From a virus (taxonomy: Duplodnaviria > Caudoviricetes): a stretch of DNA of 28,944 nucleotides. How positions within the stretch are numbered: position 1 is the first letter of the stretch; each line of letters opens with the position of its first letter. A program made the translations under genes and the position numbers. Under the pieces are notes generated by a model. That model was not told the origin of the DNA, made no database searches, and was given only the letters and a program-made list of their open reading frames with translations. This document shows positions 1,740 to 24,335 of the stretch, piece after piece. The DNA is taken from the IMG/VR virus record IMGVR_UViG_3300042857_000007, positions 1-28,944 of that record. One strand, given 5' to 3'.

Positions 1740-1777
1740 GGCGTGGTGGCTCCAGAGGCAAAAGCGCCTTGGCAATC

Positions 1778-5753: not shown

Positions 5754-5941
5754 GGTGCCTCACCCACGCAACAGCCGTTGGTCAGCACGGTGGGTGTCAT
5801 CCACATCTGGTCAGGGCGCAGCTTGACCACGGCCACCCAGCCGCCTTCAAGCTTGGCGGCGCTGGGTATGGTGTTGGGCAGGCCCAGCCGCAGCGCGGCG
5901 GCGGTGGCGCTGGCCTGCGTGGGGTAGATGGCGGCGGTCAT
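5750..5941 (-). CDS. Hypothetical early protein
   Basis: ATGA coupling on both sides. Confidence 0.65.
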   Translation of the reverse strand: MTAAIYPTQASATAAALRLGLPNTIPSAAKLEGGWVAVVKLRPDQMWMTPTVLTNGCCVGEAP

Positions 5942-6240
5942 GCCGCCACCACCTTCTGCTCCTCAAAGCCGCACATGGCCACGCTGTAGGTGACGCCCTC
6001 AAAGATGAAGCGGTCGCCCATCATGCTGGAGCGCAGGCCGTATTCCTTGCCTTCAATGACCGGCAGCGGGGCGCGCACGGTCACGGCGTCATGCCAGTCA
6101 GGGTTGCCCGGCCGTGACCAAGAACCGCTGATGTTCTGGGTGCAGCGCCATGCAAACTCAAGCGCGTCTTCGGGGGTGGCGTAGGGGGTTTCAACAGAGG
6201 CCACGTGCACGGGGCCGTGGTAGACTTCTACGGTAGACAT
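5938..6240 (-). CDS. Hypothetical early protein (TQN...SWS...LRSSMMGD motif)
   Basis: Strong RBS GGATAGGAG; first gene after the promoter at 6269-6302. Confidence 0.8.
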   Translation of the reverse strand: MSTVEVYHGPVHVASVETPYATPEDALEFAWRCTQNISGSWSRPGNPDWHDAVTVRAPLPVIEGKEYGLRSSMMGDRFIFEGVTYSVAMCGFEEQKVVAA

Positions 6241-6249
6241 CAGGTACTC

Positions 6250-6732
6250 CTATCCAGTTGACAGGGGCACCATAGCATCCTCTGTGGGGGCTTGTAAAGC
6301 GACCTTGGCCACCGGCACCCGGCGCAGTTCAATCTCGGGGTCAGTAGCTTCCACAACAAAGCCAAAGTCTTCAAACAGGCCGGTCAGCCGCTGCGGGTCA
6401 CAATCAGGCTCATAGTTGCGGATGATGGTGGTGCATTCCATGCCGTCAGCGTCAAGATCAGCCGTCACCACGGCCAGCAGGGCGCGCATGTGGCCTTGGC
6501 CGCGCTTCAGCCGGTCGTTGACGTTGACGTAGACAATGCGGTGGGCCTCACCCACCGCGCCCAGCGCCATGCTGACCAGCGCCGGGTCAACCTGATAGGT
6601 CTGCTGGGTGCGGGGGCCTGACGGCTCAGCCGCCCTTGGGCTTACCGCAGGCGGTTGAACGTCACGCGTCATCAGGGGCGCGCTCTGTGGCGGGTGAAGG
6701 CGGGCAGGGTCATGCGTGAAGGTGGCGGCCAT
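6250..6732 (-). CDS. Putative GNAT-fold acetyltransferase
   Basis: V.V....RGQGHMRALL (motif A, R/QxxGxG/A-like) and L..LFEDFGF (motif B-like). Confidence 0.6.
   Translation of the reverse strand: MAATFTHDPARLHPPQSAPLMTRDVQPPAVSPRAAEPSGPRTQQTYQVDPALVSMALGAVGEAHRIVYVNVNDRLKRGQGHMRALLAVVTADLDADGMECTTIIRNYEPDCDPQRLTGLFEDFGFVVEATDPEIELRRVPVAKVALQAPTEDAMVPLSTG
6269..6302 (-). promoter_or_regulatory. Early promoter family member
   Basis: TCGCTTTACA-N18-TGcTATGGT, lying in the 3' end of the GNAT-like gene. Confidence 0.65.
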
Positions 6733-6737
6733 GCGGC

Positions 6738-6766
6738 AGCATAGCCTATGCGTCACGCCATGTCAG
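6738..6766 (-). promoter_or_regulatory. Putative promoter for a leaderless GNAT-like gene
   Basis: CTGACA-N17-TATGCT-gccgc-ATG. Confidence 0.5.
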
Positions 6767-7240
6767 GTACTGGCGTGCGGCGTCCCAACGCAGGTCCTCA
6801 CGGGTAATGCCACGGGCCAGCAACTCAGCTTCGGTAAGGCCGTCTTGGTAGAGCGCGTAGCGGCCATACGCCTTGCTGCCCTTCTGCTTGGGGTTGGGCA
6901 CGTGGCTGACCAGCACGCGGGCGGCCTTGGCGGCCCGTGCAACGGGGCTGCGTGGGCTGGGCTGGGCTGGCTTGGGCTGCACCTTGGGGTAGGGCTTGGG
7001 CTTCAACTGGGCGCTGTCAGGGCACTTGGTCAATATGCCCTTCAGGCACGCCGTGGCTATCATGGTGCGCAGATCGGTACTGCGCTCAAGCCGTGACAGG
7101 GCGGCCTGCGGCGGCAGCTTGTGCTGAATGAGTATCAGGTCAAGCGGCACGTCAGGCGTGGGCAGCGGCAGGCTCAGGGTCTTGCAGACGGCCTGTTGGT
7201 CAGTGGCGCACAGGCGCGCAAATGCGGCAGCTTCAATCAT
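6746..7240 (-). CDS. Hypothetical protein with C-terminal 'NPKK' module
   Basis: RBS GGATAGGAG; C-terminus VPNPKQKGSKAYGRYALYQDGLTEAELLARGITREDLRWDAARQYLTW. Confidence 0.8.
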   Translation of the reverse strand: MIEAAAFARLCATDQQAVCKTLSLPLPTPDVPLDLILIQHKLPPQAALSRLERSTDLRTMIATACLKGILTKCPDSAQLKPKPYPKVQPKPAQPSPRSPVARAAKAARVLVSHVPNPKQKGSKAYGRYALYQDGLTEAELLARGITREDLRWDAARQYLTWRDA

Positions 7241-7296
7241 ATCGGTTCTCCTATCCAACGGTTGCAAGCTTGTACCGGGATTTGCCCCGGCGCAAG

Positions 7297-7461
7297 TCAT
7301 TTCTGGGGCACGCAGACCAGCGCCCAGTCTTGGGTGTTCTCAAGCTTGGCGGCGGCGCGCTGGCAGGCGTGGTAGGTGGTGAATGAGCGGTCACTGGCCC
7401 GCTCACCCACGCACTCACCGCCATTGCCACAGATGGTGAGAATGACGATGACCCACGTCAT
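7297..7461 (-). CDS. 54-aa Cys-rich protein with hydrophobic N-terminus (MTWVIVILTICGNGGECV...), not in the ORF track
   Basis: ATGA overlap with the upstream gene; four Cys; signal- or anchor-like N-terminus. Confidence 0.55.
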   Translation of the reverse strand: MTWVIVILTICGNGGECVGERASDRSFTTYHACQRAAAKLENTQDWALVCVPQK

Positions 7462-8384
7462 GACAGCCGCAGCTTGGTGGCGCTGGTGCCCACGGCGGTG
7501 CCAAGGTGCACCTTGTTGCCCGCCGCCATGCCCGCCTCACGGGCGCTCAGGCTGCCGCTGGTGGCCACGGTGGTGGTCTTGGCCTTGCGCAGCTTGTGGT
7601 CACCCCACTGCTCAGCCACCACGGCGTTCTTGACCACCATCAGGCTCTGGCCGGTGGTGGTGACCAGCGTTTCCGTATGCCGCGCCTTCAGCATTTCCCT
7701 GATACGGGCGCTGACACGCGCCGTGTAGGCCAGCATGAAGTCATTGCGGGTGCGGCGGTGGTTGACGGCACGGGTGGCCTTGAAGGCGTCATAGCCACGG
7801 TCAGCCGCGCCCTCAATGACCCGCATCAGGTAGGTGGCCACTTCAACGTCAGCCGGGAGGCCGAAGAAGATGATCTGCCCTGTGCCGGTCTTGTGGTAGA
7901 CAATGCAGGCGCAGTAATCGGCAATGGCCTTGGCGCACCACTGGCTGGGGTGCGGCCGGGCGCGGTGCGCGCCGTGAATGCCGCTTTCACACTGTTCGGC
8001 CTTGATCTGGGTTTCAGACTGCTCAATGCCGTACTTGTCCATGAGTTCACCGGCCTTGGCAGCGGCGGCCATGGCCTCCTCTTCGGTACAGCCGTTCTCA
8101 ATGGTCTTGTTGAGCAAGGCCCTGATGCGGTTGACGGCGGCGCTGCGGTTGGCGGTGGGCGCTGCGGCGGTGGCGGCGCTGAAGCTGCTTTCACCGGCCG
8201 GTATGGCGATGAAGCCGCGCTTTTCGTCCCAGTGCAGGTCTTCACGCGTGCCACCGGCACGCAGGTATTCGCCCGGCGTCATGCCGTCTTTGTAGAGGTT
8301 GAAGCGGTGCCATGCCTTGCTGCCCACCTTCTTGGGGTTGGGCACCAGCACGCGTATGCGGGCAATAGGGGTCTTGAAGGCCAT
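7458..8384 (-). CDS. DUF2786-domain protein with N-terminal 'NPKK' module
   Basis: NRIRALLNKT...TEEEAMAAAAKAGELMDKYGI is the DUF2786 signature, followed by IFFG...DVEVA.Y and terminal G..AG motifs; GGAG RBS. Confidence 0.85.
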   Translation of the reverse strand: MAFKTPIARIRVLVPNPKKVGSKAWHRFNLYKDGMTPGEYLRAGGTREDLHWDEKRGFIAIPAGESSFSAATAAAPTANRSAAVNRIRALLNKTIENGCTEEEAMAAAAKAGELMDKYGIEQSETQIKAEQCESGIHGAHRARPHPSQWCAKAIADYCACIVYHKTGTGQIIFFGLPADVEVATYLMRVIEGAADRGYDAFKATRAVNHRRTRNDFMLAYTARVSARIREMLKARHTETLVTTTGQSLMVVKNAVVAEQWGDHKLRKAKTTTVATSGSLSAREAGMAAGNKVHLGTAVGTSATKLRLS

Positions 8385-8435
8385 ATCAGTTCTCCAGAGG
8401 TTGAAAAAGGCGCAGCCGGGTGGCCGCGCCTCAGT

Positions 8436-9173: not shown

Positions 9174-9203
9174 TTGCCAAGACCCCGGCTCTGCGCCTAT
9201 GCT
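9174..9203 (+). promoter_or_regulatory. Putative terS promoter (leaderless transcript)
   Basis: TTGCCA-N18-TATGCT-gccgcc-ATG(9210); no SD before the ATG. Confidence 0.55.
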
Positions 9204-9209
9204 GCCGCC

Positions 9210-9713
9210 ATGCCGCGCCGCCCACCGCAAGTGATGATCTACCAGCCCCGGTGGGGTGATGATGATTACATGCACAGGCCCAAGGACTTTGATCCCGGCA
9301 TAGCGCTGGCCATCATTGAGCGCATCATGAACGGTGAAACGCTCAACGCGGTTTGCAGCAATAATCGTGATTACCCGCTACCCGGCACGTTCCTGTTGTG
9401 GCTTGAGCAAGAGCCTGACATCAACGCCCGCTACCGCAGGGCCAAGGCCATTCAGACTGAGTTGCTGGTTGACGGCATGCTGGAAGACGGCAAGGCCGGT
9501 ACGTGGGATGCCAACGTGCGCATGCAGGCAGGCAAAGCCTACGTGGAAAAGACTGACCCCGCCCGCTACGGGCCAAAGGCCATGGTGTTCAACATGCCAG
9601 CGCCTGAGCCAGACCAGCCCAAGACTGACGCGGCGGCCAGCGTCAGGGCCAAGGTCAATCAGATGGTTGACCGCATGAATGCCCGTAAACGCAAGACAGA
9701 GGAAGCCAGCTAA
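9210..9713 (+). CDS. terS: Terminase small subunit (Sf6 gp1-like)
   Basis: IIERIMNGETLNAVC...P...TFLLWL.....ARYRRAK...P.RYG pattern; first gene of the packaging operon. Confidence 0.85.
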   Translation: MPRRPPQVMIYQPRWGDDDYMHRPKDFDPGIALAIIERIMNGETLNAVCSNNRDYPLPGTFLLWLEQEPDINARYRRAKAIQTELLVDGMLEDGKAGTWDANVRMQAGKAYVEKTDPARYGPKAMVFNMPAPEPDQPKTDAAASVRAKVNQMVDRMNARKRKTEEAS

Positions 9714-10539: not shown

Positions 10540-10854
10540 TCAGTGGCGCAGGTTGAGGCCGGGCACCTTGATGCGGGTGCGCTTGCGCGCCTCCCTGATA
10601 TCAGCCCAGCCGCAGTAGATGCCCAAGGCTTTCTCCAGTGACAGCACAAGGCTGTTCACGTCATCGGGGCACGCCACGTCATCAGGTGACCATGGCGTGT
10701 AGGGCCGCGCCTCTGTGCTTTTGATGAGCGGCACGGGGCCGTTGCCACCATCCAGCACCAGCACAAAGCTGACCAGCAATGTGGCCTCCCCGGTTGGGGT
10801 GGTGCCGGGCTGGTCTGGCATGCGGTATAGCATCAGCGAGAGTTTCTTGCGCAC
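10540..10854 (-). CDS. Hypothetical protein on the opposite strand between terS and terL
   Basis: AAGGAG RBS and its own early-type promoter. Confidence 0.65.
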   Translation of the reverse strand: MRKKLSLMLYRMPDQPGTTPTGEATLLVSFVLVLDGGNGPVPLIKSTEARPYTPWSPDDVACPDDVNSLVLSLEKALGIYCGWADIREARKRTRIKVPGLNLRH

Positions 10855-10913: not shown

Positions 10914-10950
10914 CCCACCGGGCTACGTAACGTAAATGATCACACGTCAG

Positions 10951-10979
10951 TTGCAATCAGGCGCGTTGGAATGTAGCTT
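10951..10979 (+). promoter_or_regulatory. Putative sigma70-type promoter for the sRNA and/or terL
   Basis: TTGCAA-N17-TAGCTT. Confidence 0.55.
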
Positions 10980-10985
10980 GTGCGC

Positions 10986-11079
10986 AGGGCTGTAATGGCC
11001 CAGAGGCTTAACAGCCTCCAGCCGCCCCCGTGGCATTGTACTCCTATCCAGAGGTTGACGCGGGGGTGGCTGTTATTAT
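10986..11079 (+). ncRNA. Candidate three-hairpin small RNA with an anti-Shine-Dalgarno loop
   Basis: Hairpins 10987-11001, 11003-11018 and 11019-11072 (14-bp stem, two G-U pairs); loop GCAUUGUACUCCUAUCCAGAGGUUGA; followed by UUAUUAU. Confidence 0.6.
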
Positions 11080-11118
11080 CATCATTTACCTTTCTGAGGG
11101 GGTAAAGGATCATATACT

Positions 11119-12546
11119 TTGAACGCCAACGTAGCCGTGGCGTCGTTGCTTGCTGAAATGCCCGCTCATGAGCGGGAAATCTTTTTTATGGGCCTTTCAC
11201 CTGAAGAGGCTGACTATCTGCTGTATGATTGGTCCTTTTGGGGCCGCCCAAGTCAGCAGGAGCCGCCCGGTGACTGGGCCGTCTGGGCCGCGCTGGCGGG
11301 CCGGGGCTACGGCAAGACACGCATGGGCAGTGAGTGGGTGCGGGCCATGATGTGTGGGCCTACGCCCATGGCGCGTGGTCGCTGCGGGCACATGGCGCTG
11401 GTGGCTGAGACAGCCGCCGATGCCCGTGATGTCATGGTGCAGAGCGCTGGCGGCATACTGAAGTGCCACCCACCTGAGTTCAGGCCCATCTACAAGCCCA
11501 GCCTGCGGCGTCTGGAGTGGCCCAACGGGGCCACGGCGCACACCTATAGCGCGGATGACCCTGAGCAGTTGCGCGGGCCTGAGCATGAGGCCGCTTGGTC
11601 AGATGAGTTGGCCAAGTGGCGCTATGCCCAAGAAACGTGGGACATGCTGCAATTTGGCCTGCGGGTGGGTGATAACCCCAAGCAGCTTGTCACCACGACC
11701 CCGCGCCCCATACCCCTGATCAAGGAACTGCTTGAGGCCCCCGACACCTACATCACGCGGGGCAGCACCTACGAAAACTATGAGAACCTAAGCCCGGCCT
11801 TCATCAAAAAGATGGAGACGCGCTATGAGGGCACGCGGCTGGGCAGGCAGGAACTGCACGCTGAGGTGCTTGATGACGTGCCGGGCGCGCTCTGGACCCG
11901 CCGCATGCTTGAGACGCGCAGCGCCACCAACCCCAACGGGGCGGGCATGCGCAAGGGCGAGGACCTGCCAGACATGGTGCGGGTGACGGTGGGCGTTGAC
12001 CCGTCTGGTACGTCAGGTGAAATCAGCATGCGCCGCACTGAGGTGCGCGGTGGTGACCATGAGGATGAGGCCGGTGATGACATCGGCATTGTGGCGGCGG
12101 GCCTTGGTGATGACGGCATGATCTACGTGCTGGATGACGCCACGGTGAACTGGGGGCCTGCTGACTGGGCGCGCCGCGTGGTGCAGACCTACAAGAACCA
12201 TGAGGCAGACATGATCGTGGGTGAGGCCAACTTTGGCGGGGCCATGGTTGAGCATACCATCCGCACTGTTGACCGCAGGGTGCCGTACCGCGCCGTGCAT
12301 GCAAGCCGGGGCAAGGCAGTGCGTGCAGAACCCATTGCGGCGTTGTATGAACAGGGCCGCGTGCGCCACGTCTATGGCAAGCCCCTGAGCAAGCTAGAGG
12401 ACCAGATGATCTACATGACCCAGCGCGGCTATGAGGGTGCGGGCAGTCCTGACAGGCTTGACGCGGCGGTGTGGGCCATCACTGACCTGATGTTTGGCAA
12501 GAGCGCCAGAGGCGGCACCGTGGCGCTGCGCGGAGGGCACCACTGA
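11119..12546 (+). CDS. terL: Terminase large subunit (Terminase_6 type)
   Basis: Walker A AGRGYGKT, LRGP, Walker B AAWSDE, TTTP, nuclease VGVDP and SPDRLDA; TTG start. Confidence 0.97.
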   Translation: MNANVAVASLLAEMPAHEREIFFMGLSPEEADYLLYDWSFWGRPSQQEPPGDWAVWAALAGRGYGKTRMGSEWVRAMMCGPTPMARGRCGHMALVAETAADARDVMVQSAGGILKCHPPEFRPIYKPSLRRLEWPNGATAHTYSADDPEQLRGPEHEAAWSDELAKWRYAQETWDMLQFGLRVGDNPKQLVTTTPRPIPLIKELLEAPDTYITRGSTYENYENLSPAFIKKMETRYEGTRLGRQELHAEVLDDVPGALWTRRMLETRSATNPNGAGMRKGEDLPDMVRVTVGVDPSGTSGEISMRRTEVRGGDHEDEAGDDIGIVAAGLGDDGMIYVLDDATVNWGPADWARRVVQTYKNHEADMIVGEANFGGAMVEHTIRTVDRRVPYRAVHASRGKAVRAEPIAALYEQGRVRHVYGKPLSKLEDQMIYMTQRGYEGAGSPDRLDAAVWAITDLMFGKSARGGTVALRGGHH

Positions 12547-18723: not shown

Positions 18724-21474
18724 ATGGCCAAGCTGAGACTGGGCAAGAAGCTGCACATGAGCCGTGGGGCCACCCATGCGCGCATGCAGTTTCAGGAGGC
18801 CAAACACAAGCGTGACGTGAGCGGCAAGTTCGCTGAGATGCCCGGCCAGATGCCGGGTGCTGACGGCACCACCGCCGCCGCCAAGGTCACGGTGACCCCG
18901 GCCACCACGGCTGATTGGATGGCCGGTGCCAAGACCAGCAAGGTGGGCGGTGATGACCTGATCAAGCTGCACGTGCAGAGCAACCCCAAGAAGCCGGGCA
19001 GCGCGGCGGCTGAGCGCTTTGCCAAGTATCAGGACGGCATGACCGTGGCCGAATACAAGGCGGCCGGGGGCACCGCTGAAGATTTGGCATGGGACCGCAA
19101 GCGTGGCTTTGTGACCTTTCACGATAAGGCCACCTACGCCAGCATCAGCACCAGCGGGGCCAGCCCGGTTGCGCAGATCAACCACGCCACCGCCACCGGG
19201 CGGCTGGCCAGCATCAAGGCGCAGACTGAGGCCAAGGCGGGCGCGGCCACTGAGGCGGTGAAGCCGCCACCGCCTGAGGTGCCCATCAAGGCGTCTGGTG
19301 AGCCGCCTGAGCCGCCAGCACCACCCAAGCCGGTAGAAGCGGCCCCTAAACCGGCCGCTGCGGCCCCAGCCAGCCCCGCCAGCGTGCAGAAGCCGCCAGC
19401 AGGCCCTGAGCCAGCCCCCAAGCCACAGAACGCGCCTACGGGCACGCCTGAGCCTGCCAAGACGTTCTACAAGCCAGCGCCAGCGCCAACGGCGCTCAGT
19501 GATGACACCATGGTCAAGCACTGGGCCAGCAAGCAGCCGGTCACCATGGCTGAGTACAAGGCCAGCCTCGGCACCAATCTGGGCAAGCACACCCCTGACA
19601 GCTTTGTTCAGCAAAGCTTGCAGAATGGCGATCTGAAGGTGGTGACCCCTGCGGCTGTGCCCAAGCAGCCCAAGCCCACTGACCCGGCTGAGACGCTGAC
19701 CTTCAAGAAGGGTGATACGCTGGCCGACACCAAGCTGAACGGCGTTGAGATGCGGCCATGGCAGCCGCCCAAAGACGCCGAGGGCTGGAAGAACGTTGAC
19801 GGCCAGATGCACCTGCCTGATGAGCCGCCCATGCCCACCATGGGCAAGCTGGGCAGTGGCGTGCTGATCAGGGAGCCTGACGGCCGGGTGTGGGTGGTCA
19901 AGCCCACCAATGAGTTTGGCGGCTACAAGCACACCTTCCCCAAGGGCACCATAGACAAGCATGAGGGCCTGTCACCGCAGGCCAACGCTATCAAGGAGAC
20001 CTTTGAAGAAAGCGGCCTGAAGGTGAAGATCACCGGATTTGCCGGTGACTTCCAAGGTGACACGGGCGTGGCGCGCTACTACTACGGCCAGCGCACTGAC
20101 GGCACGCCGCTTGACCACGGGTGGGAGAGCGAGGCCGTTCTGCTGGTGCCGCCCGGCAAACTCAATACCGTCCTCAACAAGAAGCGTGACTTGGACATTG
20201 CCGCCAAGCACCTGCCAGACATCACGCCTGACCCTGACCAGTTGGCGACGCTCAAGGTCAGCGTCAAGCCGCAGACGCCGCATGACGTGCCTGCCGAGAC
20301 GGGGCGCTGGGGCAAGGCGGCCAGCGTCAAGGCGTCTGTGGCCACGGCGGCCCCGCCCCAGAACTGGGACACCAGTTCTGTGATGACTGACGTGCAGAAG
20401 CAGGAGATGCGCTATGTGCGTGACGCCACCGGCCTGAAGTACCATAGCGGAGATGACAATGAGGCCGTGGGCTTCTACACCTATGACGGCCATGAGGATA
20501 TCAACGGCGGCCTGCGCGTGGGTGGCACGCTCAGCCCTGAGGCCGCGCAGCATGTGAAGACGCTTGACGGCATGATGGCTGAGACGGCCAATGACGTGGT
20601 GGTGTGGCGCGGCATGAAGAGTGCCGGTCTAAATGGCGAGTTCAACACATTCAACACAATGCCACCGCCCATGGAGTTCGTTGACCCGGCCTATGGCAGC
20701 ACCAGCATCAACCCTGCGGTGGCGCACCAGTTTGCCGGTGGCCACATGGGCAAGACAGTGGTGTTCAAGGTGCGCGTGCCCAAGGGCACCAAGGCCATGA
20801 GCGTTGGCCGTGAGGGTGACGTGCGTGAGGGTCTGCTGGATGAGGCTGAAATAGTGCTGGCACGCGGCACGCGCTACAAGTACGTGACCACGCACACCAA
20901 TCAGACCGTTGCTGGGGAAAACGTCAACGTCATTGAGTTGACCGTGGTCAGCAACAACGGCGCGCCTGTAACGCAGCAGATCAAGCTGCCCAAGAAGATG
21001 CCGGATAACCACCGCTATGAGGCTGATGAACTGGTTGATCTGCCCGCCGCCAAGGTGGCTGATGAAGGCGCGGCGGGCCTGAAGTGGGAGTACGAGAAAG
21101 AGTACCACCAGTACGGCGGCCACTCATGGGTCACCAGCCAAGGTGGCACCGGCATCACCAATCAGGCAGACTTCAACAAGCGCTATGCTGAAGCGCCCCT
21201 GACCTATCTCACCAATGATCAATACGATAATCTTGGCTACACCAGCATCAACACTAAGAAGTTGCCCACCTTTGCCAGCGTGGCACCGGGCCTGAAGCAG
21301 CGTAACCGTGACCCCGATGCCATGCGTGACCGCATGCTGAGCGATGACGGCGTGACCACGCCGCCCATAGTGCTGCGTAAGAACGGCAAGCTGCGGCTGA
21401 TGGCTGGCCAGAGCCGCATCTGGGTTGGCTTGGCCACTGGTTACAGGGTGCCTGTCAAGGTACTGGAGGTCTGA
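18724..21474 (+). CDS. Multidomain protein A: NPKK module + Nudix hydrolase + R-S-E ADP-ribosyltransferase (VIP2/Alt-like) + ParB/Srx-like C-terminus
   Basis: Nudix box FPKGTIDKHEGLSPQANAIKETFEESGL (~19935-20019); ART YT....INGGLR, VWRG, YGSTS, VPKGT, DEAEIVLARG (~20470-20950); C-terminal PPIVL.....LMAGQSR.......VPV. Confidence 0.88.
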   Translation: MAKLRLGKKLHMSRGATHARMQFQEAKHKRDVSGKFAEMPGQMPGADGTTAAAKVTVTPATTADWMAGAKTSKVGGDDLIKLHVQSNPKKPGSAAAERFAKYQDGMTVAEYKAAGGTAEDLAWDRKRGFVTFHDKATYASISTSGASPVAQINHATATGRLASIKAQTEAKAGAATEAVKPPPPEVPIKASGEPPEPPAPPKPVEAAPKPAAAAPASPASVQKPPAGPEPAPKPQNAPTGTPEPAKTFYKPAPAPTALSDDTMVKHWASKQPVTMAEYKASLGTNLGKHTPDSFVQQSLQNGDLKVVTPAAVPKQPKPTDPAETLTFKKGDTLADTKLNGVEMRPWQPPKDAEGWKNVDGQMHLPDEPPMPTMGKLGSGVLIREPDGRVWVVKPTNEFGGYKHTFPKGTIDKHEGLSPQANAIKETFEESGLKVKITGFAGDFQGDTGVARYYYGQRTDGTPLDHGWESEAVLLVPPGKLNTVLNKKRDLDIAAKHLPDITPDPDQLATLKVSVKPQTPHDVPAETGRWGKAASVKASVATAAPPQNWDTSSVMTDVQKQEMRYVRDATGLKYHSGDDNEAVGFYTYDGHEDINGGLRVGGTLSPEAAQHVKTLDGMMAETANDVVVWRGMKSAGLNGEFNTFNTMPPPMEFVDPAYGSTSINPAVAHQFAGGHMGKTVVFKVRVPKGTKAMSVGREGDVREGLLDEAEIVLARGTRYKYVTTHTNQTVAGENVNVIELTVVSNNGAPVTQQIKLPKKMPDNHRYEADELVDLPAAKVADEGAAGLKWEYEKEYHQYGGHSWVTSQGGTGITNQADFNKRYAEAPLTYLTNDQYDNLGYTSINTKKLPTFASVAPGLKQRNRDPDAMRDRMLSDDGVTTPPIVLRKNGKLRLMAGQSRIWVGLATGYRVPVKVLEV

Positions 21475-24335
21475 TGCCCGGCCTGAAGCTGAAGCTGAAG
21501 ACAGCTACCAAGATTTCAAAGGGTGCCCACGGCGTCAAGATCAAGTGGGACATGAACAAGCACAAGCGCGACCAGATGACTGGGCGCTTTGTCAACAAGC
21601 CCGGCTCTGAGGAGTTCAAGGCTGAGCCTTTCGGCCCCGGCAAGACGGGCAACATCAAGGGCACCGATGTCATCAAGCTGCACGTGACCAGCAACCCCAA
21701 GAAGCCGGGGTCAAAGGCCAATGCAGACTTTGAGAATTACAAGGATGACATGACGGTAGCCGAGTTCAAGGCCGCCGTGGGCAACAACACCAAGGCCAAC
21801 GAGCACCTGACCTATGACACCAAGAAGGGCTTCATCACCATACACGACCCGGCCACGCTGCCCGCCAAGCCGCTGGCCCAGCCTGAGCCGCCGCCGCCAC
21901 CCAAGCTGACCACGGCCGAGTACGCCATCACCAGCAAGACCAAGAACCTGCAACCGCACGACAAGATCAAGCTGCTGGCCGGGCACAACCCCAAGAAGCC
22001 GGGCAGCAAGTCTGCGGCCCTGTTCTCAAACTACAAGGATGAGATGACGGTAGCTGAGTTCCACGCCGCCATTGGCAACAAGAAGGCCAGTCAGGAGACG
22101 TTGCTCTACGACCTCAAGAAGGGCTTCATCAGCGTGCACAACGGCGCTGATCTGGCTGACATGCAGAGCGGCAAGCTAAGCCCCGGCAAGCTGGCGGCGC
22201 ACATGCAGACAGGTGACAAGGCCCTTGGCGTGGTCAGCAAGAACCCGTTCACCGCAGGCACCAAGAATTATCAGGACTTTGAGGACGCCGCCTTTGACCA
22301 AGGTTTGGTCACGCAGGCCAAGGTGACGGCCAGCGTTGACCCGGCCACGGGCGCGCCCAAGCCCAAGCTGGCTGATCTGGATGACAATGACATCATCACC
22401 AGCCAGACCGGGGCAACCTACAACGCAAGCCTGCTGAAGAGTGACCCGGACCCTGTCTTCAAGAAGGTGGTGGATGACAATCTTGCCAGTGGCAAGTGGA
22501 CCGTCAAGCCCAAGCCCGTTACACTTATGGATACTGACAAGGTATCCGTGAAGGGCGGCAGCATGATCAGCAGCACCAAGTACACCGTGGCTGAATACAA
22601 GGCCATCACCGGCATGACTGACGCGCAGGTGCAAAGCGCCCTGAGCGCTGGCAAGCTGCACCTGCACCCGCCTGAGGCTGGCGCGCCCGCGCCCAAGCCC
22701 GCCACGCCCACGCCTGCGCCCGCGCCCAAGCCGCTGCCCAAGCAAAGCGTTGAAGATGACACCGTGGTGCAGACCATGGGCGGCACCGTCTACACGGCGG
22801 CTGAGTACAAGGCCAAGTGGAAGGCCAACGGCCTGTCAGATGAAGATGTGATCAACAAGCTGAACAACAACATCGCCAGTGGCGTACTTGTGGTCAAGAC
22901 CAAGAGCAAGTTTGCTGACAATGACGTGGTTGAGACGTACTTTGGGAATAAATACACCATAGCCCAATTGAAGGCCAAGTATCCGCATCACACTGATGAT
23001 GATATTCAGGAGCAGCTTGACAACGGTGACCTGTCATTTGTGGCCAAGCAGCCCCCGCCGCCCCAGCCCAAGTCTACACCCACGCTTGACGCCCTGCATG
23101 ATGATGATGTCATCGTCAACAGCATGGGCGTGGTCATGATGTCAGCGGGTGGGGCCAAGAAGCTTGAGACAGCCTCAAAGACTGCCGTTGAAGATGCGCT
23201 GGCCAGCGGCGCATGGAAGAAAGAAGGGGCCTCCCCAGCTGCGCTGACCAAGCTGTCACAGATACCCAAGGCTGAGTGGGACACCCATGACGTTGCCACC
23301 ATCACGGCGGCCAACCCCTACCCGGCAAATTCTGAGGCGTGGATCAAGTTCAAGAAAATCCATAATACATCAAGCGGCACTCAGAGCATGAGTGTGACAA
23401 AATACATGTCATCCACCACCAACGTGGGCACGCAAGAGGCGGTGCTTGATAAGATGGTGGCTGACGGTCACGTCAAGTTTGTCACGCCCGCGCAGAAGAC
23501 CGCCGTGCAGGCGCAGAAGGCCCTGTTACAGCAACAGGCCGCTGCTGAGGCCACCAAGAAGGCGGCTGCCACAGCCGCTGCGCAGAAGACCAAGTGGAAT
23601 GCGCATTTCCAAGTGGTGAAAGAAAAGTCCATAGCCCAGTTCACTGATGACCCCACGTGGGGCAGCAAGCCGGGCAACATGCTGCCCAGCCAAGTCAAGC
23701 AGAGCGGTATGGTGGCCGTCAAAAACATCATGGGCCTGAAGTACCACAGCAACAGCAAGTACGCTGGCGTGGCTTGGTATACCAACGGCGGCTACAGCGC
23801 GGCTAATGAAAAGCTGCGCAACCCCAAGCTGGGTCATGCCCATTTGAACAGTGAGCAGAAGGGCCACGTCAAGGAACTTGACAGCTTGATGTCTGAAACC
23901 AAAGAAGACGTGGTGATGTGGCGTGGTATCAGCGAAAGCAGTGATACGGTGCCTACGGCCGATGCGCAGGGCAACATGAACAACATGCCACCACCGTTTG
24001 AGTTTGTTGACGGCGGCTATGCCAGCATGAGTTTCAACCCACGGGTGTCTGATAGCTTCAAGGGTTATTCCACCACGCACGCCAGCGGCAGCACCTATTC
24101 ACAAACGGGCAAGCGCCGCACGCTGTTCAAGATGCGTATACCCAAGGGCAGCAAGGCGGCGTTTGTGGGCCGCAAGTATAGTCAGGACTTGGCTATGGAA
24201 GATGAGGCTGAGGTGATCACGGCGCGGGGCACGCGCTTCAAGTACATCAGCACCACGCGTGATGTGGATTTCTATGGTGCCAAGTATGACATCATTGAAC
24301 TGGAGATTGTGAACCACGCTGGCGGCAATATCTGA
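21474..24335 (+). CDS. Multidomain protein B: repeated NPKK and related modules + C-terminal R-S-E ADP-ribosyltransferase
   Basis: ART WYTNGGYSAANEKLR, MWRG, YASMS, IPKGS, EDEAEVITARG (~23770-24335); TGATG-coupled to protein A. Confidence 0.88.
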   Translation: MPGLKLKLKTATKISKGAHGVKIKWDMNKHKRDQMTGRFVNKPGSEEFKAEPFGPGKTGNIKGTDVIKLHVTSNPKKPGSKANADFENYKDDMTVAEFKAAVGNNTKANEHLTYDTKKGFITIHDPATLPAKPLAQPEPPPPPKLTTAEYAITSKTKNLQPHDKIKLLAGHNPKKPGSKSAALFSNYKDEMTVAEFHAAIGNKKASQETLLYDLKKGFISVHNGADLADMQSGKLSPGKLAAHMQTGDKALGVVSKNPFTAGTKNYQDFEDAAFDQGLVTQAKVTASVDPATGAPKPKLADLDDNDIITSQTGATYNASLLKSDPDPVFKKVVDDNLASGKWTVKPKPVTLMDTDKVSVKGGSMISSTKYTVAEYKAITGMTDAQVQSALSAGKLHLHPPEAGAPAPKPATPTPAPAPKPLPKQSVEDDTVVQTMGGTVYTAAEYKAKWKANGLSDEDVINKLNNNIASGVLVVKTKSKFADNDVVETYFGNKYTIAQLKAKYPHHTDDDIQEQLDNGDLSFVAKQPPPPQPKSTPTLDALHDDDVIVNSMGVVMMSAGGAKKLETASKTAVEDALASGAWKKEGASPAALTKLSQIPKAEWDTHDVATITAANPYPANSEAWIKFKKIHNTSSGTQSMSVTKYMSSTTNVGTQEAVLDKMVADGHVKFVTPAQKTAVQAQKALLQQQAAAEATKKAAATAAAQKTKWNAHFQVVKEKSIAQFTDDPTWGSKPGNMLPSQVKQSGMVAVKNIMGLKYHSNSKYAGVAWYTNGGYSAANEKLRNPKLGHAHLNSEQKGHVKELDSLMSETKEDVVMWRGISESSDTVPTADAQGNMNNMPPPFEFVDGGYASMSFNPRVSDSFKGYSTTHASGSTYSQTGKRRTLFKMRIPKGSKAAFVGRKYSQDLAMEDEAEVITARGTRFKYISTTRDVDFYGAKYDIIELEIVNHAGGNI

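Follow-up and report, generated by a model that had tools for sequence, protein, structure and literature searches.

A terL-leader stem-loop in a clade of tailed phages with a loop antisense to ribosome-binding regions of the phages' own leftward genes

Does the stretch just upstream of the terminase large subunit gene (terL) of a tailed phage encode an antisense RNA that acts in trans on the phage's own genes, and if so, on which genes and to what end? A sequence-only reading of this locus had proposed a free-standing small RNA with a loop complementary to several ribosome-binding regions, acting as a multi-target translational off-switch in the early-to-late transition, lysogeny or superinfection exclusion. 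The part of this proposal that stands in our analysis is a structured + strand RNA whose loop is antisense to the ribosome-binding regions of several leftward genes; the free-standing small RNA and the link to lysogeny do not.

The window (the whole 28,944-nt stretch analysed, IMG/VR record IMGVR_UViG_3300042857_000007) is a tailed-phage fragment, in which small genes run leftward between about 1000 and 8900 and are followed by rightward genes (Table 1). No close cultured phage was found (best TerL identity 49.5%, to Brevundimonas phages) and no close copy in GTDB genomes (best TerL 56%); an alphaproteobacterial host would be only a guess from these nearest matches. Between the tail fibre and scaffold genes lie two large + strand genes (18724-21474 and 21474-24335) with ADP-ribosyltransferase-like domains (the first also NUDIX; Alt-like by PHROGs), and a similar pair is present in the complete relative G001.

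Table 1. Positions of the terL-leader element, its predicted target sites and neighbouring genes in the window
Feature	Position	Strand	Details
Sigma70-type promoter-like site	10951..10979	+	TTGCAA (10951-56), 17 nt, TAGCTT (10974-79); predicted start ~10986
Hairpin 1	10987..11001	+	Kept in closest relative L001
Hairpin 2	11003..11018	+	Missing from closest relative L001
Main stem-loop	11019..11072	+	Conserved; GC-rich basal stem with compensatory changes
Predicted guide loop	11033..11058	+	Lineage-specific; apical UCC open; antisense to target Shine-Dalgarno regions
Predicted hairpin over terL ribosome-binding region	11077..11114	+	terL -13..-6 P(unpaired) 0.37
Predicted target site, 100-aa gene 5938-6240	6244..6262	-	14 nt perfect (6244-57) plus TTGAC (6258-62); net -12.1 kcal/mol after opening costs
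Predicted target site, 164-aa gene 6746-7240	7248..7264	-	10 nt (7248-57) plus GGTTG (7260-64); net -9.7
Predicted target site, 308-aa gene 7458-8384	8393..8404	-	12 nt; net -11.9
Weaker predicted target site, 94-aa gene 1455-1739	1751..1758	-	8 nt; assessed in the window
terS	9174-9713	rightward	
Conserved 104-aa gene	10540..10854	-	Divergent from the RNA promoter in the window; in 13/15 loci
terL	11119..12546	+	TTG start; PHROGs phrog_979, E 5e-34
Portal, tail fibre, scaffold and capsid genes	3' of terL	rightward	

The local architecture described from sequence was recovered at the stated places, namely the promoter-like pattern, three hairpins on the + strand, and three G-U pairs that form on that strand only, as confirmed from the fold read against the sequence. 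The + strand fold reaches -50.4 kcal/mol (z -3.88, 0/200 shuffles), compared with -44.3 (z -2.79, 3/200 shuffles) for the minus strand of the same region. The promoter-like site scores below the threshold of a consensus promoter scan, and a like pattern lies 5' of the stem in 13 of 15 homologs compared with 132 of 3000 random 200-nt windows, the pattern for this count having been derived from those same sequences. It likely also drives the terL-portal operon, and is accounted for as a plain terL promoter too. The second hairpin is absent from the closest relative and is therefore dispensable, and 5' hairpins of different sequence occur in lineages other than that of the window and L001. The reported U-rich tail proved to be only AU-rich, with no terminator called, and is missing in most relatives. 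Rfam covariance models gave 0 matches in the window at gathering score, and at E up to 10 returned only SNORD87, P9 and sn2343, all far under the cut-off.

We then turned to relatives of the window for evidence of conservation. Searching with TerL turned up 70 loci in viral and 80 in metagenome sequences, among which those with TerL at ~78-100% identity and upstream DNA yielded 15 distinct elements including the window's. This set leaves out duplicates of the L009 type (L003, L004, L006, L007), the L005 type (L008, L078) and the L085 type (L077, L082), the window or contigs already counted (L071-L076, L079), L083, whose element is incomplete, and L012 and L069, which come without upstream DNA. 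The GC-rich stem-loop is found in 15/15 elements, and its eight basal base pairs are paired in 119 of 120 cells, in a register set by eye, with G-C/C-G and C-G/U-A swaps among them. The covariation score of 0.425, on five of the eight basal pairs, exceeds 500/500 shuffles and all slid controls, in a type of test that relatedness of the sequences inflates. Across the 15 elements G-U pairs number 15 on the + strand and A-C oppositions 1, and the + strand folds better than the minus strand in 14; the structure is therefore kept as a + strand RNA. At its tip the apical UCC is predicted to be open in every element (P(unpaired) at least 0.85 in 15/15).

The hairpin is missing from the more distant relatives inspected, a TerL profile scan found no new phage above 59%, and a covariance model built from the 15 elements gave 13 matches in 57 sources, all of them its own training elements; the model missed the L009 element and is thus insensitive. 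A degenerate pattern scan returned 24 viral matches, 2 of them known and 22 without a clade marker gene nearby; one contig it picked out, unrelated and viral, carries a 30-bp near-perfect inverted repeat (L268:10001-10048, minus). Separately, in a 94-kb relative whose TerL is 63% identical, the hairpin's place is taken by a tRNA-Met gene (L261:1414-1490, L264:4233-4307), near which a tRNA with a CUA (amber) anticodon is called.

Another account of the element would make it the ribosome-binding site of a minus-strand ORF of 29 aa (10947..11036), or a chance or copied piece of early leader lodged in a terL-leader hairpin. The minus strand indeed reads a Shine-Dalgarno sequence and an ATG that open a 29-codon frame, and pyrimidine-rich loops always match GGAG somewhat. 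However, this ORF is without a Pfam match and is not conserved among the 15 homologs, 6 of which have no ATG in the hairpin while the other nine lead into unrelated peptides of 15-69 aa, and chance is excluded by the shuffle and permutation tests given below, which leaves this account scarcely credible.

The stem lies just upstream of terL in 15/15 elements, ending 17-48 nt before the gene, as the sequence-only reading had placed it, and no conserved U-run follows it. Since no conserved terminator is present, the element is the terL leader rather than a free-standing gene, and without the U-run a released small RNA would need processing or Rho termination. terL itself starts with TTG in 11 of the 15 (the start coordinate of L085 is not a start codon, and was counted as neither TTG nor ATG), and its -13..-6 region is predicted to be mostly closed (P(unpaired) <0.5 in 14/15). 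A single weak sequencing run, probably of DNA, gives no cover over the element and so does not bear on its expression.

Such proximity could also mean that the hairpin mainly controls terL in cis, with the loop folding on the terL ribosome site and early mRNAs freeing that site by pairing with the loop, so that the leader would sense early transcripts without silencing them. The loops of L013 and L107 are in fact complementary to their own terL ribosome sites (9 and 11 nt; -22.5 and -28.9 kcal/mol), and in L083, whose element is truncated, the loop likewise folds onto that site. Yet the match to the own site is just 3-6 nt in 12 of the 15 elements, the window's included, and 7 nt in L002, near the level of foreign loops (means 3.7-5.9), and in those 12 it is other local pairing that covers the terL site. 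We thus regard control of terL in cis as the main function as unlikely. The sites concerned (L013:9981-9989, the interval between stem and terL in L107, and L083:1-97) are candidates for a pseudoknot or cis switch, and L013 has another 9-nt match before a 593-aa gene (L213:1964).

The core of the proposal is pairing in trans, and all four loop matches reported from sequence are present in the window. They are the four best of its 40 called start regions (14, 12, 10 and 8 nt), with 0 of 3000 loop shuffles reaching the observed top-three sum of 36 (shuffle mean 18.7, maximum 29) when a 5-nt TCC-containing core was held fixed. The sites lie 2.6-9.3 kb from the loop, and pairing spans 8-14 nt. The targets at 8384 and 6240 have 5 nt in common with each other, compared with 12 and 14 nt, respectively, with the loop, a pattern that a guide would give and a single protein site common to both would not.

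This last comparison bears on the possibility that the motif is a protein-binding site before early genes, either a DNA operator or an RNA site, and the hairpin a decoy copy acting as minus strand or DNA. The motif has the same DNA orientation in the hairpin as in the targets, a single 7-nt core is common to all targets in L010-type phages, and the repeats of cluster K mycobacteriophages discussed below were left as possible sites for "RNA or protein" in the part of that report used here (PMC3203893). But the G-U polarity of 15 to 1 points to a + strand RNA, the window targets fit different and barely overlapping parts of the loop, and the motif varies freely between lineages whose proteins can still be aligned; a protein site with a decoy is, in light of this, highly improbable.

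Strong evidence for a guide comes from comparison between lineages, whose loops differ while each fits its own phage's leftward genes at the Shine-Dalgarno region; the exact 16-nt loop core of the window occurs in 0 of 70 loci. Examples of such matches are TTGTCCTAG, found ahead of both the 309-aa and the 108-aa gene of L010, GGTTCCAA ahead of the L009 313-aa gene, and CTCTCTGTCCAGG, GTTCCCTGTCC and CTCCTGTCTGTCCA, which precede the 157-170-aa genes of L013, L015 and L081, respectively. With orthologs grouped by blastp and starts set by coordinate, the mean longest perfect helix in the 308-aa family is 8.7 nt with the own loop (n=9) vs. 5.0 with loops of other lineages (n=64), and in the 165-aa family 10.4 (n=8) vs. 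5.2 (n=58). Across the six lineages with early regions, taking one phage each, the cognate assignment of loops to targets ranks 1 of 720 permutations, compared with 382 of 720 in four control gene families; without the window's lineage it ranks 1 of 120 (controls 86 of 120). As both families had been named from the window alone, the other five lineages constitute an out-of-sample test, and the covariation of loop and targets in related phages that the sequence-only reading called for is thereby borne out. The 100-aa and 129-aa families, by comparison, were picked after matches had been seen.

Within individual phages, the 165-aa ortholog ranks top or tied top in L015 (11 nt, 106 genes), L013 (13 nt, 68), L081 (14 nt, 21), L001 (13 nt, 17), L010 (9 nt, 68) and L080 (9 nt, 21). 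The 308-aa genes of L009 and L010 are missing from such ranks, the simple gene caller having chosen other starts for them. Sites of at least 8 nt lie at about -23 to -4 and, once the cost of opening both RNAs is paid, retain net energies of -5.6 to -17.1 kcal/mol.

Our analysis also revealed labile target sets that shift between lineages, with 1-4 targets per phage. For instance, L013 shows no match at the 308-aa gene (5 nt) and L015 hardly any (6 nt), and L009 has none at the 165-aa gene (4 nt). Good matches to the 100-aa gene are confined to the window and L001 (6 nt in L081), and matches to the 129-aa gene to L010, L011 and L080. In L009 just one site, of 8 nt, is present, and 6-mer matches show no significant enrichment there (8/118 vs. 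13/303, p = 0.32). Within a lineage we see no fine specificity, with the window loop scoring -24.8 on the L001 100-aa site vs. -21.4 for L001's own loop. Between these two phages (window 6244, L001 ~1888), a one-base gain occurred at the same position in both the loop and the 100-aa target site, and the L001 duplex is no stronger.

The 164-aa gene, from the most consistently targeted family, carries a C-terminal NPKK module, and the 308-aa gene an N-terminal NPKK module followed by DUF2786 and DUF7168; since the module sits at the N-terminus in one family and at the C-terminus in the other, duplication of gene starts does not explain the start regions they share. The module itself (~45 aa) is widespread in phages (41 loci; L228-L260) and without a Pfam family, and its model shows weak likeness to small winged-helix-like folds (best Z 5.6, most <=4.7). 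Neither the fold of the 164-aa target nor that of the 104-aa neighbour has a significant PDB match; the sole fold match beyond these nulls is to phiJL001 gp18 (E 4e-4), and the Atlas clusters are unnamed.

Promoter-like sites stand upstream of the targets as well, a TTTACA just upstream of the 6240 target and another site upstream of 8384. Three of the four window targets directly follow TTTACA promoter-like sites and are therefore likely the first genes of early transcripts, and gene layout together with these sites suggests that the target genes are probably early. More broadly, a repeated TTTACA-17/18-TA motif (minus strand), often after TCGC, is seen upstream of 1739, 3353, 6240, 8384 and 10854. 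An attenuator-like GC hairpin followed by five U (8405-8428, minus) adjoins the RNA target site of the 308-aa gene, lying between its promoter-like site and its ribosome site.

A further alternative accepts the pairing and gives it another purpose, in which the RNA guides a phage or host nuclease or modifier to early mRNAs, or stabilises or activates them. In its favour, a gene for a small conserved protein of 104 aa lies close to the element at 13 of the 15 loci, and the model of this protein has weak, non-significant nuclease-like matches (NurA E 0.03, RNase T E 0.15; best Z 5.5). Against this, the sites lie over the Shine-Dalgarno sequence itself, where pairing normally blocks initiation, no significant fold match ties any neighbour to RNA guidance, and in some lineages the 104-aa gene is several kb from the element. 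This gene is also not a conserved target, with a 7-nt loop match in the window only. We consider guidance or activation distinctly improbable.

On the structure, strand polarity and position of the element, and on loop-target complementarity and covariation, we infer that the terL leader probably gives rise to a trans-acting antisense RNA that would block translation of several leftward, probably early genes. Host sigma70 polymerase would transcribe the element from ~10986; the open UCC would nucleate on a target GGA and zip to 8-14 bp at about -23 to -4, forming a duplex over the Shine-Dalgarno sequence that would keep out the 30S subunit. Because the terL ribosome site is covered and the start codon is mostly UUG, transcripts may undergo early termination or cleavage; by analogy with P4 CI, trimming as far as the strong stem could then leave a stable RNA of ~67-100 nt, although the intact leader could act as well. 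As the RNA accumulates, the NPKK-module genes and a few neighbours would be turned down.

Two complete relatives, G001 and G003 (82 and 79 kb), carry genes for DNA polymerase, helicases, primase and thymidylate synthase, with thymidine-hypermodification domains in G001. Domains of tyrosine integrases and serine recombinases are absent from both. PF00589 was found in 0 of 5 records and PF07508 in 0 of 4, two of the records being complete, and no repressor or ParA match occurs among 88 of the 118 called G001 proteins. The clade therefore appears to be virulent, and a role in lysogeny, one of those proposed from sequence, is disfavoured because the two complete relatives are without integrase. 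Time-delayed shut-off of early genes in the lytic cycle is the most likely role, and exclusion of a closely related superinfecting phage is possible as a side effect.

Known phage RNAs offer several parallels. The c4 antisense RNA of P1 and P7 covers ribosome sites of phage mRNA with its loops, and a few bases set its specificity (PMC5320573; PMC12197685). Like c4, the element would be a trans-encoded phage RNA with a loop that pairs with the phage's own mRNAs where ribosomes bind, and few changes in loop or target define specificity. c4 is cut from a longer transcript, with processing by RNase P. It differs in having three stems and two loops, compared with one conserved stem and one targeting loop in our 15 elements, and in targeting ant mRNA to maintain lysogeny, whereas here several unrelated genes would be targeted in phages in which no integrase was found. 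The window targets are genes of unknown function and DUF2786/DUF7168 genes, not the antirepressor operon of a temperate phage, and no Rfam covariance model match supports membership in c4 or P4 CI. The terL-leader element thus appears to work like c4 and is not a c4 member. Of the general features of trans-acting small RNAs, it has its own promoter-like site and a conserved one-strand structure, and has no intrinsic terminator with U-tail (Hfq-type 3' end).

P4 CI RNA and the lambdoid late-leader RNAs 6S and StxS are small RNAs from 5' leaders of phage transcripts, P4 CI acting through transcription termination for immunity and StxS regulating host genes. We propose that the element, like these, is what remains, as a stable small RNA, of the leader at the 5' end of a longer phage transcript; unlike P4 CI and StxS, its predicted action is translational and directed at the phage's leftward genes. 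The sar, OOP and aQ RNAs overlap their targets. These cis-antisense RNAs of P22 (sar) and lambda (OOP and aQ) act on phage genes, sar by blocking translation initiation, and lambda 6S is named among phage RNAs in the same source (PMC12197685). Each of the three has one main target, compared with the several distant targets found here.

Another parallel is the start-associated sequence (SAS) of cluster K mycobacteriophages, an extended Shine-Dalgarno repeat before non-structural genes with one inverted copy away from starts; this near-invariant 13-mer occurs at 11-19 genes of temperate actinophages, and its function was left open in 2011 in the portion of the report covered here (PMC3203893). 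In the 30.8 kb searched of Anaya we found 15 forward and 1 inverted SAS site. The inverted site (L356:29871) is intergenic and falls in a predicted hairpin loop that has 9 nt in common with the window loop; its other strand folds better (-68.9 vs. -55.2). As with SAS, the loop is a single antisense copy relative to its target mRNAs. Unlike SAS, only 4 of 40 start regions in the window match by at least 8 nt, and with different parts of the loop, and sites here differ by lineage, with polarity and covariation measured. We take SAS as a structural parallel, and claim no homology. No published description of a terL-leader hairpin family was found; Fremin 2023 (PMC10690425), covered in part, contains candidate RNAs upstream of terminase genes, and an unannotated prior prediction may exist.

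Early-gene shut-off in lytic phages is known mostly through proteins, and phage antisense RNAs on phage genes are mainly single-target switches of temperate phages, as far as the covered part of one source goes (PMC12197685). A c4-like kind of RNA is known; what is new is its combination with an apparently lytic clade, a terminase leader and several targets. Tentatively, and with more doubt than conviction, one may go further and picture the packaging-operon leader of virulent phages as a re-programmable guide RNA, whose loop silences a shifting set of early genes, whose co-drift with its targets sorts relatives into RNA-defined exclusion groups without a repressor protein, which gates terL in one branch, and which is one case of a widespread, undescribed class of anti-Shine-Dalgarno RNAs that could explain the cluster K SAS repeats. 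If the trans-acting reading that we favour is true, one loop-guided RNA acting on several targets from the terminase leader would tie early shut-off to late transcription without a protein, and the six natural loop-target sets would make a ready-made orthogonal panel. The loop result also suggests a direct way to probe the function of the SAS repeats in culturable mycobacteriophages.
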